This document shows positions 36,446 to 45,232 of a stretch of 64,000 nucleotides of DNA, one piece after another. This DNA is from a virus. Within the stretch, counting starts at the first letter, position 1; every line of letters begins with the position of its first letter. The translations under genes were made by a program, and so were the position numbers. The notes beneath the pieces are model-generated. The model did not search any database. It was not told the origin of the DNA and saw only the letters and a program-made list of their open reading frames with translations. The stretch is taken from the IMG/VR virus record IMGVR_UViG_3300021088_000005, positions 36,811 through 100,810 of that record; one strand, 5' to 3'.

Positions 36446-37111
36446 TTAGATAGTTCCTCGACGCTTCATATCTAGTATCAAAGCGATTACTTGTTCTTTT
36501 GAAAGTCCTGGACCTGGGATTCCCTGTTCGCCTTCTGGACCCTGAGGACCTATCGGTCCTTGTGACCCCGACTCACCTTGAGGACCCTGCGGTCCTGCTT
36601 CTCCGCGCAGTCCTTGCTCGCCCTGCGGACCTTGTATGCTCAATCCTGTAGGGCCTTGTAACCCTTGAGGACCCTGCGGTCCTGCTTCGCCTTGAGGTCC
36701 TTGAGCGCCAACTGGTCCTTGAGGTCCTGGAATATCGGAAACTCCTGGCTCTCCCTGCGGACCTTGTAATCCTTGTTCTCCCTGCGGACCTTGATCGCCA
36801 TCGCGACCGTCTTTTCCGTCTACTCCGTCGCGACCGTCGCGACCTGCTGGTCCTGTGTCACCTTTTGGCCCTGGCACTGTGCTGTCTGAGCCGGTCGCTC
36901 CGGTTTCGCCCTTCTCGCCGCGTTCACCGCGAAGACCTTGCGGTCCAGGAATGTTAGAAACCCCCGGCTCACCTTGTAGACCTCGTGGACCTTCAAGACC
37001 TCTTCGAGAGTCTCTGTGTCTGTGCAGGTCATTTACTGCTGTTTCAAGTCTTGAGATTCGTTCGTCTAAAGTTAAATCCACAGTATCATCTCCAAATCCA
37101 TCCGCAGACAC
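36446..37111 (-). CDS. Collagen triple-helix repeat protein
   Basis: About 50 Gly-X-Y triplets (GPQGEQGLQ...) after a short coiled coil. Confidence 0.9.
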
Positions 37112-37190: not shown

Positions 37191-38948
37191 TTATGAGCCA
37201 CTTGCGACTCCGTTGTGATCCAGAATATAAACTACATTGCCGCTGTTAGGAACGACTACGTGAACGATGTCTAGCAATGACGGGTTTGTGAATGCATCAG
37301 CGAACAACTGAGCAATTGTTGCCCCGCTGGTTAGGCGTGTGAAATACTGGCCTAGTCTGACCCCATTCGACGGAGTGAAGGACGCAGCAATGGTGGCGGT
37401 AGCAGCATGAGTTTCTGCTGTCTGCGTGGTCTCGGCTACAACTATGGTTGTGGCCGTGCTTGAGATTACAAGAACACTCGATACATTGTTGCCGCTGCTA
37501 GTGAAACCAGTAACTGTTATGAAACGACCAGCAAGACCGTTGGACGCACCGTTCGTTATGGTTCCGGTATATGTGGCCTTGTTGACTCCGGAGATACGAA
37601 CAGTTGCCGCATGCGTTTCAGCCGCTTGGCCCACTATGAAGGTACCAACCAAGGTTGTTGCTGTTGACGCCGTGATAACAAAGCTTACGTTGTTGCCGGA
37701 TGTTGTAAATCCGGCTACTGTCGCAGTAAAACCTACAAATGCGTTAGAAGCACCGCCTGTGATCGTTCCGGTGTAGGTGGTAAGTGATACCCCGGCTATC
37801 TCGGCAGTCGCAGCGTGAGTTTCGTCAACCTGAGTGTTCGGGGTAACCGTGATGGTTGTCGCAGTTGATGCAGTAATAGTGAATGTGCCGTTATTTCCAC
37901 CGTTCACGAAACCAGCGATTACAACCTGCTTACCAGCAAATGCGTTAGAAGCACCACCAGTAAATGTTCCGGTGTAGACACCTGTTGAACCGACAACAGA
38001 TGTGATTGTGAATGACGAAATAGCAACAGAGGTTAGCGCGAAGTCGTCTACCGCGACAGAAGTTAGCGGAGATGTAAACAAAGAACTGGTTGAGACATTG
38101 TGAACTGTTCCGATATTGTCAACCGAAACCAGGATGTCTCCGCCCTCTCCTACAATCTGAAGCAGGTCTAGGTTCTGTGGGCCAACACCGTTAGGGGTAA
38201 CTTGAGGATACGCAGATGGTACGCTTAAGCCGGGCTGAGACGCAATTAGCGCCTGAGCCACTCCGCCAGCAGTTGTTGGGGTGGCTGCGGAAGCAGGGGC
38301 TGTGATGTTTGTAGCTGTCGCGATAGTAACCGCGCCGCTAGACGTGACCAATCCTGCGAGAGCACGGCCCTTCAGGGTGCCGCCTCCCAATGTGATGCTA
38401 GTGTTGGCAAGAATATTACCAACCATGTTAGAAGTACCAGCAAAGATTGAAGTGAAGGAACTTCCTACTAGCCAAACCACGTTTGCAGCCTTAGCGCCAT
38501 TCACAAGCAATACAGACGCACCACTCTCTAAAGTAAGTGTAGAGCCTGCCTTAAAAATAAAAACAGCATTAGGGTTTCCCTGCGCATCTAGGGTAATAGA
38601 TGTCGGGATGTCCATTGATGATCCAGCGGAGTAATTGCCGGGTAGGTATGTGCTAGCCGTCCCGCCATTTCCTAGAGTAGATAGGTTGGCTGAAGACGCA
38701 GACAAAGATGTGAAGGAAAGTGCGGAGAAAGCGTTATAAGCAGTGAGGCCGTCTGCAATAGCTTGCGCGGCGTTTGGGGTATCAACTGCGGCAGGAGGAA
38801 TAAAGATCATCCCGTCCAAAGTATATGTCGCGGTTGGTGACGACCCGACATTGCCACCTGTGATGATGCTAGAGCCTGAGTTAGTAATACCAGCGCCTGC
38901 TAGAATGACATAATTAGCGGCGGTCAACAACTGAGACTGAATAGACAT
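37191..38948 (-). CDS. DUF3494 ice-binding domain protein with C-terminal repeats
   Basis: TAANYVILAGAGITNSG...ITLDAQGNPNAVFIFKAGSTL...NVVWLVGSS...GRALA, then three YTGTxTxGASN...GF...GNN...ETHAAT modules; SD AGGAG before ATG 38948. Confidence 0.85.
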   Translation of the reverse strand: MSIQSQLLTAANYVILAGAGITNSGSSIITGGNVGSSPTATYTLDGMIFIPPAAVDTPNAAQAIADGLTAYNAFSALSFTSLSASSANLSTLGNGGTASTYLPGNYSAGSSMDIPTSITLDAQGNPNAVFIFKAGSTLTLESGASVLLVNGAKAANVVWLVGSSFTSIFAGTSNMVGNILANTSITLGGGTLKGRALAGLVTSSGAVTIATATNITAPASAATPTTAGGVAQALIASQPGLSVPSAYPQVTPNGVGPQNLDLLQIVGEGGDILVSVDNIGTVHNVSTSSLFTSPLTSVAVDDFALTSVAISSFTITSVVGSTGVYTGTFTGGASNAFAGKQVVIAGFVNGGNNGTFTITASTATTITVTPNTQVDETHAATAEIAGVSLTTYTGTITGGASNAFVGFTATVAGFTTSGNNVSFVITASTATTLVGTFIVGQAAETHAATVRISGVNKATYTGTITNGASNGLAGRFITVTGFTSSGNNVSSVLVISSTATTIVVAETTQTAETHAATATIAASFTPSNGVRLGQYFTRLTSGATIAQLFADAFTNPSLLDIVHVVVPNSGNVVYILDHNGVASGS

Positions 38949-38964
38949 GATGCTCCTGAAATAC

Positions 38965-38993
38965 AAAAGCCGCCCAATCTAGGCGGCTTCTTT
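38965..38993 (-). terminator. Terminator ending the RNA array (possibly bidirectional)
   Basis: AAGCCGCC/GGCGGCTT stem with T tracts on both strands. Confidence 0.7.
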
Positions 38994-40104: not shown

Positions 40105-40112
40105 ATAAATTT

Positions 40113-40176
40113 TGGAGGGTAGCCATTTCGTTCCCGCTAGGGCGAAGGGGTCGTTATCACTAGGGCAGTACTACCC
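40113..40176 (-). ncRNA. CCA-terminated small RNA (64 nt)
   Basis: GGGTAG/CTACCC terminal stem plus TCCA; no cloverleaf. Confidence 0.45.
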
Positions 40177-40222
40177 TGCTGTTGTTCCCTAATTACCTGA
40201 CCAACGATTTCACAGATCGAAC

Positions 40223-40298: not shown

Positions 40299-40304
40299 AT
40301 AAAA

Positions 40305-40376
40305 TGGAGCGAACTACTTACGGATTCGAACCGTCATCCGGTTGGCCTTCCGGATTACACCCTAGTGCGTGTTCGC
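40305..40376 (-). ncRNA. Atypical tRNA-like RNA (8-nt anticodon loop, 5-nt bulge between T arm and acceptor stem)
   Basis: GCGAAC/GTTCGC-TCCA; ATCCGG-AAGGCCAA-CCGGAT; ACGG-TTCGAAT-CCGT-AAGTA. Confidence 0.6.
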
Positions 40377-40382
40377 ATAAAC

Positions 40383-40459
40383 TGGACCAGCAAGTCAGAC
40401 TCGAACTGACTAAGAACAAGGTTGCAGCTTGTCGCCTCGACCGCTTCGGCATTTGCTGG
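40383..40459 (-). tRNA. tRNA-Cys(GCA)
   Basis: ACAAG-CTGCAAC-CTTGT; U73; CCA. Confidence 0.88.
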
Positions 40460-40460
40460 T

Positions 40461-40494
40461 TGGTCGCGGAACCGCCGTGAAGCTAAGTCCCACG
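40461..40494 (-). ncRNA. 34-nt ACCA-terminated minihelix 1
   Basis: CGTGGGAC-TTAGCTTCACGGCG-GTTCCGCG-ACCA. Confidence 0.55.
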
Positions 40495-40496
40495 AT

Positions 40497-40530
40497 TGGT
40501 GCCCCGCCAGGATTGCTCCGAAGCTAGGGC
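40497..40530 (-). ncRNA. 34-nt ACCA-terminated minihelix 2
   Basis: GCCCT-AGCTTC-GGA-GCAA-TCC-TGGC-GGGGC-ACCA. Confidence 0.55.
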
Positions 40531-40535
40531 ATAAA

Positions 40536-40622
40536 TGGCGGATGATGAAGGAATCGAACCCTCTTCACCTTTCGGTGAGGACAGTTTTCAAGACTGCTGC
40601 CCCCCATGGAGCCCAATCATCC
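40536..40622 (-). tRNA. tRNA-Ser(TGA)
   Basis: GCAGT-CTTGAAA-ACTGT; long variable arm; G73; short D arm. Confidence 0.82.
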
Positions 40623-40629
40623 GTAAAAA

Positions 40630-41145
40630 TTAAGTATGAAACACTGTAATCGGCAACCAAGCAACATGGATATCTACTTCAGTCCCGTTGACTGGTGCGG
40701 AACAAGTTGCGCTAACTCCTAGTCCGAATAGAGAAGACTGAACCGTGCTCCACAAAGACAATGGGTTAATTCCCCATAGATCAGTCGAACTACCAAGAGT
40801 ATAAAACTGTGGCTCGTTAGTTAAAGTAACATGTTTTCCGGTTCCGATTGGGTTGCCGTTCAAAGACATGGCAACATACAACTGACCGCTTCCGCCACCT
40901 GGCGAAGCATAGTACGCCCAGAATCCACCTTCAAGACCTGTTACACTCTGCTGCTCAGCTAATGTAAATCCGTATCGCTGACCGAAGACTGCTACCCCTG
41001 TGTTCTGACTACCGCCACTGAACTCTTTGTTCTGAGCGTAATCGCCTGGGGGCGATCCTACGAGACCACCGATATTAGTCCAGAGTACTTCATTACCGTT
41101 TGCGTACTGTACCGAATAGCCTGCGTATGCGCTTTCACTTGCCAT
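40630..41145 (-). CDS. Beta-rich hypothetical protein inside the RNA array
   Basis: SD GGAGG; YTLGSSTDLWG motif. Confidence 0.65.
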   Translation of the reverse strand: MASESAYAGYSVQYANGNEVLWTNIGGLVGSPPGDYAQNKEFSGGSQNTGVAVFGQRYGFTLAEQQSVTGLEGGFWAYYASPGGGSGQLYVAMSLNGNPIGTGKHVTLTNEPQFYTLGSSTDLWGINPLSLWSTVQSSLFGLGVSATCSAPVNGTEVDIHVAWLPITVFHT

Positions 41146-41365: not shown

Positions 41366-41374
41366 GTATTCAAC

Positions 41375-41666
41375 TGGTGACCAATAGCCAGGGTTCTGTC
41401 CAGCGCTTTCACGCTTGAACTGTCATTCGTCTTCGCTTCCAACCCGACCTTCGTCACGCTCAACAAGCGCTCTGGTCCTATTTGGAATTGCACCTACAGA
41501 GAGTCACTTCGCTCGAATGACCTATATGACGGTTGTTAAGTTTCTAATCGACCGCTATATGGGTACGAAGCCTTACTAGTCCGGTTACCCGGCCCGCAAC
41601 TTCCACGGTGTAGTGTTGAGATGTGCCCTGAACTTCCTCGGTTTCCCGCGACAGTTTAGGTCACCA
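41375..41666 (-). ncRNA. rnpB: RNase P RNA (type A-like, no P18, divergent S-domain)
   Basis: CR-I GAGGAAGTTCAGGGCAC and CR-V ACAGAACCCTGGCTA form P4 with bulged U; P1 TGGTGACC/GGTCACCA; P2 ACTGTCG/TGACAGT; P3; P5 GCAC/GTGC; P6 CTCAACA/TGTTGAG; P7 CTACA/TGTAG; P15 TTCC/GGAA; CR-IV AGACGAAT; P19. Confidence 0.9.
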
Positions 41667-41675
41667 AACTAAAAC

Positions 41676-41912: not shown

Positions 41913-41917
41913 ATAAA

Positions 41918-42035
41918 CCTTTCCGATGTCACTTTCTCAGATCGCAGGCGCGTGACTGGCCGTGTCACAGTCCTTTGGGCTCGCGTGATCTGCTACGTTA
42001 GGCGATCATCGGTGCTAGTTTTCAAGGCTAGCAGG
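41918..42035 (-). ncRNA. Unknown structured RNA between tRNAs
   Basis: GCTAG/CTAGC, CCGATG/CATCGG, CAGATC/GATCTG, GTGAC/GTCAC stems. Confidence 0.45.
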
Positions 42036-42039
42036 AACT

Positions 42040-43987: not shown

Positions 43988-43988
43988 A

Positions 43989-44052
43989 TGGTGGAGTCGG
44001 TGTGCCACGGTATCCCGGAAGGTTCTACCTTCTGTAGGTCTTGCCGTGCTCC
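43989..44052 (-). ncRNA. CCA-terminated small RNA (64 nt)
   Basis: GGAG/CTCC-ACCA, CACGG/CCGTG, GAAGGT/ACCTTC. Confidence 0.45.
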
Positions 44053-44138
44053 ATAATGTCCGGCGCGGATTGCATGTTGCTCCGCGTCGTCCGATGTGTC
44101 AGATAGTTCGTTGTATACTATCTCACACATCGTAAAAT

Positions 44139-44858: not shown

Positions 44859-44867
44859 AAAATCATA

Positions 44868-44936
44868 GATGGCGTCCTATCCGTTAGACGATACACGCCG
44901 ATAGCATGCACCGGGACTCGAACCCGGATTTCCACC
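44868..44936 (-). ncRNA. Circularly permuted, anticodon-less tRNA (YrlA Y-RNA-like)
   Basis: Order: GGTGG, AAAT, T arm, TGCATGC, TATCG loop, GCGTGTA, D arm, CCATC. Confidence 0.8.
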
Positions 44937-44941
44937 TTACT

Positions 44942-45035: not shown

Positions 45036-45041
45036 AAAATC

Positions 45042-45136
45042 TTGAACCTTCCCGAGCTTTACTAGCGTGACACTCGGTCTTGATTAACAAGTCGTGCCTT
45101 CCACGCTAGCGGTTGCACGATCAATGAACGGTTCAA
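45042..45136 (-). ncRNA. Unknown multi-stem RNA with 8-bp kissing loops
   Basis: TTGAACC/GGTTCAA; TCGTGC/GCACGA; CCGAG/CTCGG; loops CTAGCGTG/CACGCTAG. Confidence 0.6.
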
Positions 45137-45142
45137 ACTTGA

Positions 45143-45229
45143 TTCGGGACCCGGCATCAACCTTCCCAGGAAGTGCCACGTCGGTTAGAAGCTTGACACT
45201 TACTACCAACGTCGTCAAGGTTTCCCGAA
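45143..45229 (-). ncRNA. Unknown pseudoknotted RNA
   Basis: TTCGGGA/TCCCGAA; CTTGAC/GTCAAG; ACGTTGGT/ACCGACGT; GGCA/TGCC; CTTCC/GGAAG. Confidence 0.55.
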
Positions 45230-45232
45230 AAC

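Follow-up and report, generated by a model that had tools for sequence, protein, structure and literature searches.

The stretch analyzed here, referred to below as the window, comprises the 64,000 nucleotides (nt) between positions 36,811 and 100,810 of IMG/VR virus record IMGVR_UViG_3300021088_000005, that is, the right-hand 64 kb of a 100.8-kb soil virus record with a completeness of ~95%. Within its tRNA array, between the genes of tRNA-Ser(UGA) and tRNA-Cys(GCA), we located two tandem 34-nt hairpins, hp1 (40497..40530, minus strand) and hp2 (40461..40494, minus strand), delineated by sequence and fold and each ending in a discriminator A followed by CCA. This arrangement, already described in an earlier note made from the letters of this DNA, was confirmed by our reading of the sequence and by folding. 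Compensatory changes and conserved pairing in related phages mark selected structures, and hp1 and hp2 are therefore very probably real structured RNAs maintained by selection. The fuller proposal, to which we give roughly an even chance, is that each is a gene for a minihelix RNA, one of a modular phage family whose members are excised in the manner of tRNAs and act in trans as mimics of the tRNA acceptor end.

The 76 nt running from tRNA-Ser(UGA) to tRNA-Cys read, on the minus strand, UUUAU, hp1, AU, hp2, and A. The first of these elements (40531..40535, minus strand) follows a tRNA-Ser(UGA) sequence ending in CCGCCA, is of the spacer type seen in the array, and provides a U at position −1 of hp1. 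The AU dinucleotide (40495..40496, minus strand) links both hairpins, and the single A (40460, minus strand) separates the CCA of hp2 from tRNA-Cys, with the same 1-nt spacing in the related contigs L151, L127, L217, and L265. In hp1, a 5-bp stem is followed by a bulged A, a 3-bp helix (GCU/GGC), a small internal loop, and 3 bp capped by a GCAA tetraloop; hp2 consists of 9 bp, a 2-nt UA bulge, 3 bp (GCU/GGC), and a UCAC loop. Folded singly, they reached −16.0 kcal/mol (hp1, z −2.3) and −15.9 kcal/mol (hp2, z −3.2), and the whole gap yielded a z of −3.3, with none of 200 shuffles being equally stable. The ~12 stacked pairs expected of a minihelix are thus present in hp1 (5+3+3) and hp2 (9+3), as they are in the relatives (11-13), and both hairpins combine a tRNA-like acceptor helix with discriminator and CCA in the register of the array. 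As the earlier note had also stated, D, anticodon, and T arms are missing; indeed, neither ARAGORN nor Rfam (at E≤10) reports a tRNA at 40461-40530, and the 7-nt T loop (TPsiCRANY) is absent from both hp1 (GCAA) and hp2 (UCAC).

A further element of that description, a TAGCTTC..GGCGG motif contained in both hairpins, held equally: it occurs twice in the 64 kb, only in hp1 and hp2, against 0.09 expected occurrences. The core common to the two hairpins nonetheless spans only ~14 nt, and other members of the hp2 family read UAGCCUC...GGCAG or GGCGC, so that the motif appears partly specific to this genome. The search that the note had proposed failed to extend the family, as scanning IMG/VR for TAGCTTC..GGCGG..ACCA returned at least 118 matches, none of them in a tRNA array and none convincing, which we attribute to chance. 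A scan of the same database with the stem pattern of hp1 gave 46 matches, likewise all discarded as chance, the only array-borne one (L164) being the tag-coding part of a tmRNA.

Relatives were instead reached through other features of the phage, chiefly the RNase P RNA encoded in the same operon (41370..41667, minus strand; bacterial type A, Rfam, 72.7 bits, E 5e-21), whose product is the presumed RNA of the processing enzyme. Among cultured phages, blastn with the region produced only generic tRNA-Ser matches, and none of the cultured relatives examined carries an RNase P RNA. A complete relative with a syntenic array, G001, was found via its large terminase (75% amino-acid identity), and its RNase P RNA exceeds the Rfam gathering score. 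With an invariant 16-nt segment of this RNA as query, ~20 tRNA-array contigs were retrieved from IMG/VR, and an extended pattern of this RNA added 82 contigs from soil and peat metagenomes, which places an RNase P RNA retained within a tRNA array in more than 100 contigs. Five of the relatives' RNase P RNAs scored 102.6, 111.8, 104, 102.3, and 102 bits, all above the gathering score. Array-borne RNase P RNAs of relatives lie, for example, at L125:2140-2447(-), L127:8190-8518(-), and L138:1458-1764(+). Contigs identical to the phage RNase P RNA were also present in RNA libraries (two runs from two studies). Collectively, these sequences delineate a large group of uncultured phages in which the tRNA array includes an RNase P RNA of its own. 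Full-text searches of the literature turned up no account of minihelix genes occurring in nature, nor of any phage tRNA array with an RNase P RNA.

Selection is indicated by the hp2 family, which besides the window copy includes L217:3955-3989(-), L220:557-591(-), and L245:381-415(-). These four sequences share an apical module, (U)UA-GCY-UCAC-GGC, on top of 9-10-bp basal stems that differ largely in sequence. In their alignment, 98% of the cells fall in standard pairs, a count that includes one unpaired cell that is an alignment artefact, and both sides have changed in 7 of the 13 pairs; in the MAFFT and covariance-model alignments, the gap of the window copy stands in a register differing from its minimum-free-energy fold. 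None of 500 column shuffles reached any of five covariation measures, and sliding the partner by 1-3 columns lowered pairing to 31-47%. The comparison of L217 with L220, which needs no gaps, shows five of the ten basal pairs to be fully compensatory, with none broken. A covariance model built from the four sequences recovered only these at E<1e-5 in 606 kb.

For hp1, a single homologue was identified in the same slot of another contig (L265:3565-3598(-)), identical at 30 of 34 positions. The compensatory evidence here consists of one swap, A14-U19 to C14-G19, and of one new pair, the U11/G22 opposition of hp1 becoming U-G; the GCAA loop is retained. In the same comparison, identity amounts to only 75% for the flanking tRNA-Ser and tRNA-Cys and to 67-68% for the Gln tRNAs. 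A second-round covariance model of hp1 (R2) detected no further members. By eye, the second hairpin of L151 resembles hp1 (CCCURGCU...GGYCGGGG-ACCA), a likeness that gained no statistical support. Unit 4 of L220 and unit 5 of L245 make up a further family, differing by two swapped pairs. A common plan of 10 bp, a bulge or 1x1 mismatch, 2-3 bp, a tetraloop, and NCCA can be drawn for hp2, this last family, unit 2 of L245, and the second hairpin of L151, and hp1 looks like a version with the same core, a shorter base, and a longer tip at unchanged total length. Homologues, on whose existence the earlier note had made its reading depend, are therefore at hand and carry compensatory changes. From these comparisons, what selection preserves is the helix, its length, the apical module, and CCA, but neither the stem sequence nor the discriminator.

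We compared the slot between tRNA-Ser and tRNA-Cys in contigs with the gene order RNase P, Ser(GCU), Ser(UGA), Cys, Gln, Gln. Its content ranges from zero to five tandem units. The slot is empty (0-8 nt) in L136, L138, L204/L267, L226, and L268; it holds one NCCA hairpin in L265, L244, L133, and L217, two in the phage under study and in L151/L253, as well as in L127, whose first unit has lost its CCA, four in L220, and five in L245, one of them with UCA instead of CCA. The complete relative G001 has one hairpin that ends in GUCA and resembles the second unit of L127, and in a few contigs the slot is occupied by a long perfect hairpin or by a small open reading frame (ORF). Slot units measure 30-37 nt, with 11-13 stacked pairs, tetraloops (often GNRA or UUCG), and NCCA; CCA is retained in ~19 of 22, and the discriminator base preceding it is variable. 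Units follow each other at 1-2 nt, and the last one ends 1-7 nt ahead of tRNA-Cys. The register of hp1 and hp2 (previous CCA plus 1-5 nt, with U at −1) is repeated in L151, L133, L265, L244, L217, L220, and L245. Several families of units occur, combined differently between relatives, and this variable 0-5-unit slot looks like accessory, possibly conflict-driven, content.

Some side observations concern the slot and similar small hairpins. In L223 and L206, a small ORF starting MCYQCEKELYKLEKQ... takes the place of the hairpins between Ser(UGA) and Cys. A DNA contig from a second soil sample (run X2; 40536-40546) matches the window from 40546 onward and diverges to the left of that position, on the hairpin side, which may point to a strain or relative whose slot is filled differently. 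A second conserved family of small hairpins, CUUCGCC-GCGAAAGC-GGAGUGAAG-ACCA, 26-28 nt in length, was noticed in L125, L241, L247, L276, and L273, lying ~30 nt upstream of tRNA-Arg(UCU) or tRNA-Leu(CAA).

The tRNA register of the units (U at −1, helix, NCCA, and the next gene 1-2 nt on), together with the RNase P RNA in the operon, makes excision by RNase P the economical reading, and we consider it likely that the hairpins are processed like tRNAs. The tRNA/RNase P operon would yield a polycistronic tRNA precursor that includes the units; RNase P, made of the phage RNA and presumably a host protein, would cleave each of them at the base where pairing begins, and the next RNase P cut, 1-2 nt downstream, combined with exonuclease trimming would generate the CCA end. 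The released hairpins would be non-decoding, with the size and end of the stacked acceptor and T arms of a tRNA. Such mimics could then occupy an enzyme that reads helix length and CCA, be it a host defense enzyme targeting tRNA ends, a 3' exonuclease, the CCA-adding enzyme, or RNase P. The features that are conserved are those read by enzymes gauging the acceptor/T-arm stack and the CCA end, and, together with a hot spot of 0-5 units whose families are differently combined in each phage, they favor, at modest odds, a mimic acting in trans. That the hairpins serve as trans decoys or competitors is nevertheless speculative and, on balance, doubtful. The earlier suggestion of a decoy for acceptor-end toxins would fit the conserved helix length, the NCCA end, and the gain and loss of units, again speculatively. 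Going one step further, the interchangeable cassettes could be an RNA counter-measure that absorbs or misdirects host enzymes acting on tRNA 3' ends, an idea we hold unlikely as it stands; toxins that pyrophosphorylate or nucleotidylate CCA, acceptor-stem nucleases, and CCA-trimming exonucleases would, at the same low level of confidence, be examples of such enzymes. If it applied, the hot spot of 0-5 units and its rapid turnover would be explained by hairpin families adapted to distinct host effectors.

The hairpins invite comparison with several known RNAs. Synthetic minihelices reproducing the acceptor and T arms of tRNA are 35 nt long, with 12 bp, a 7-nt T loop, and NCCA, and are minimal substrates of RNase P, the CCA-adding enzyme, EF-Tu, and some synthetases. 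The units resemble them in length (30-37 versus 35 nt), in their ~12 stacked pairs, in the single-stranded discriminator plus CCA, and in lacking an anticodon; however, they are natural genes and putative substrates, they carry GCAA, UCAC, GUAA, or UUCG tetraloops instead of a T loop, and in most of them the helix is interrupted, ~10 bp from the end, by a bulge or a small internal loop. The 4.5S RNA precursor and the C4 antisense RNA of phages P1 and P7 are natural RNase P substrates in which a hairpin, flanked 3' by an RCCA-like sequence, is cleaved at the foot of its helix. They share with the units the non-tRNA hairpin and a CCA-type 3' end, but each is a single RNA of established function (in the signal recognition particle and as antisense repressor, respectively), unlike the units, which are tandem cassettes in a tRNA array and are not known to have a complementary target. 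The rnaC and rnaD transcripts of phage T4 ("species 1 and 2"), stable non-tRNA RNAs co-transcribed and co-processed with the phage tRNAs, offer a parallel for non-tRNA RNA genes within a phage tRNA cluster, although they exceed 100 nt and are more complex than these minimal hairpins with several interchangeable families. In mascRNA and in the tRNA-like module of YrlA (a bacterial and phage Y RNA), tRNA mimicry likewise recruits tRNA enzymes or binders without decoding; these RNAs, however, keep a cloverleaf or elbow, whereas the units consist only of an acceptor-like helix and CCA. ToxI, the RNA antitoxin of type III systems, is also made of tandem ~35-nt units (36-nt repeats) on one transcript, and phages are known to carry decoy copies of it. 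Yet ToxI repeats are direct and near-identical, form pseudoknots, and are cut by their own toxin, whereas neighboring units in the slot differ from each other and end in CCA, and the adjoining genes are tRNAs, with no toxin gene. A ToxI-like identity of hp1 and hp2 was rejected on the grounds of their short common core and tRNA neighbors.

The main rival to a function in trans is that the hairpins work solely in cis, aiding the processing or stability of the precursor as additional RNase P/exonuclease punctuation that would set the order or efficiency of tRNA-Cys maturation or protect neighboring ends, and are functionless once freed. We regard this as a serious but less than probable alternative. 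All units found are placed immediately upstream of tRNA-Cys, at a distance of 1-7 nt, nothing but the general determinants of RNase P cleavage (helix, NCCA, and U at −1) is kept in them, and stem-loops that replace tRNAs as punctuation are established for mitochondrial transcripts. On the other hand, tRNA-Ser and tRNA-Cys are joined by 0-8 nt without any hairpin in several relatives, which indicates that neither neighboring tRNA needs the units and that tRNA-Cys can mature without them; in another gene order, tRNA-Cys follows tRNA-Leu after 5 nt, also without a hairpin. Moreover, one to five units of different families with conserved apical modules exceed what punctuation would require. Chance hairpins or terminators of the opposite strand have a negligible likelihood. 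A loose search for a hairpin followed by NCCA did give ~42 matches over both strands of the 100.8-kb genome (~1 per 4.8 kb of strand), and hairpins followed by CCA are not enriched over all array gaps, coding ones included; in short array gaps, they number eight on the sense strand versus none on the antisense strand. A lone hairpin with NCCA is hence not rare, but an adjacent pair in tRNA-like register and with covarying homologues exceeds chance, and no terminator-like site with a U tract exists at 40461-40530 on either strand.

Two further alternatives take the hairpins as derivatives of tRNA in function or in descent. The earlier note had considered them naturally encoded minihelix RNAs that might act as aminoacyl carriers, that is, as minihelices charged by a synthetase and delivering the amino acid to a non-ribosomal acceptor. 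Their minihelix-like nature stands, backed by the homologues, but the carrier role is weakened and now seems very improbable. Several synthetases do charge synthetic minihelices in vitro, and hp2 has C1-G72, A73, and an acceptor stem matching that of the relatives' tRNA-Pro(UGG) at 13 of 14 positions, a match that nonetheless lies within chance given the 1601 tRNAs compared. The four hp2 members, however, carry A, A, U, or G as discriminator, and their 1:72 pair reads C-G once and G-C three times, so that they preserve no common synthetase identity; G3-U70 is missing as well, and no FemAB-type transferase was found in the genome. The hairpins could alternatively be neutral relics, that is, core-deleted, decaying tRNA genes, which we deem more improbable still. 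The tRNA arrays of these phages do gain and lose genes, and the acceptor stem of hp1 agrees with the relatives' tRNA-Leu(UAG) at 12 of 14 positions, but this resemblance is within chance expectation, and the internal similarity to the 1601 array tRNAs is no better than that of shuffles, in line with the negative Rfam search. Furthermore, decay is at odds with stems kept intact by compensatory changes, with hp1 being better conserved than its flanking tRNAs, with a length tightly bounded at 30-37 nt, and with the recurrence of GNRA and UUCG loops. An origin of the hairpins from tRNA genes is possible all the same.

Several observations also weigh against the proposal of excised, trans-acting minihelix RNAs itself. 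In three metatranscriptome runs, no contig extended over 40369-40635, contigs being unable to reveal 34-nt species; those identical to parts of the phage cover the RNase P RNA, ORFs, and some tRNAs. The families are small (two and four sequences), and the hp2 family amounts to three distinct lineages, as its L220 and L245 members differ only at the discriminator; the genomes are mosaic, and some of the conservation could reflect recent exchange. The units are dispensable, the slot being empty in L138, which has the most similar flanking tRNAs of the IMG/VR set, and in at least four other contigs. The tRNA pool against which any decoy competes would be very large. Targeted searches of the phage genome recognized no RnpA, CCA-adding enzyme, or FemAB-type aminoacyl-tRNA transferase, so the first two would have to be supplied by the host.

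The operon hosting the hairpins is a dense RNA operon on the minus strand, from 46062 to 39007, whose array comprises ~36 genes. ARAGORN called 32 tRNAs in it and Rfam added three; 31 of the 32 listed tRNAs encode CCA, the exception being tRNA-Asn, for which the ARAGORN call ends in GCC. The 1-5-nt spacers around the hairpins resemble those between the tRNAs of the array, which are short and U-rich, for example, GUUUAU and AUUUUA. The immediate neighbors of the hairpins, both called by ARAGORN, are tRNA-Ser(UGA) upstream (40536..40622, minus strand; CCA encoded) and tRNA-Cys(GCA) downstream (40383..40459, minus strand). Two strong sigma-70-like promoter matches, identified by consensus only, head the array on the minus strand (46106-46078 and 45668-45640; 11 of 12 with TG). 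The ORF at 40630-41145, beside the hairpins, was tried as an anchor and has no relatives, being private to this genome. Soil metagenome runs contain the stretch.

Other features of the array and the phage were noted in passing. The 84-nt gap between tRNA-Cys and tRNA-Gln(UUG) (40299-40382, minus strand) resembles a tRNA in its fold, with UUCGAAU as T loop, UCCA at the end, and an anticodon stem that encloses a loop of 8 nt (AAGGCCAA); it was called by neither ARAGORN nor Rfam. In the gap at 44859-44941 (minus strand), a T arm (CCGGGUUCGAGUCCCGG) precedes a D-arm-like segment, suggesting a permuted tRNA-like or Y-RNA-like module. Four more inter-tRNA gaps (40105-40222, 41913-42039, 43988-44138, and 45036-45232, minus strand), 118-197 nt in length, form strong folds of as low as −73 kcal/mol without being tRNAs; in two of these gaps, NCCA stands at the end, ahead of the spacer. 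Among relatives, L133 (oriented copy 1398-1472) and L222 carry ARAGORN tRNAs with four-base anticodons (UAAG and GUAA), which may read frameshifts. A 591-aa protein adjoining the array (37191-38966, minus strand) contains an ice-binding-like domain (PF11999, E 9e-35), and the best cultured relative of the terminase, at 25% identity, belongs to a phage of Tunturiibacter, an acidobacterium from tundra soil.

For 35 years, minihelices have existed as laboratory constructs that serve to define what RNase P, the CCA-adding enzyme, EF-Tu, and synthetases recognize in the acceptor end and that figure in models of tRNA origin. Here, they would occur as natural, selected genes, in exchangeable families, up to five in tandem, and within an operon that has its own RNase P RNA. 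In kind, they would join the known small RNAs that mimic tRNA and are processed by tRNA enzymes, with a real chance of representing a new functional class; what this case adds is formal covariation for one family, a modular slot of 0-5 units, and the link to a phage RNase P RNA. Soil and peat metagenomes are rich in this phage group (>100 contigs), and such hairpins may constitute a general, overlooked class of genes skipped by tRNA finders. If the RNAs are made, they would offer a natural system in which to follow the fate of an anticodon-less CCA end in the cell or phage, and a natural test of RNA decoys in the phage answer to tRNA-targeting defenses.
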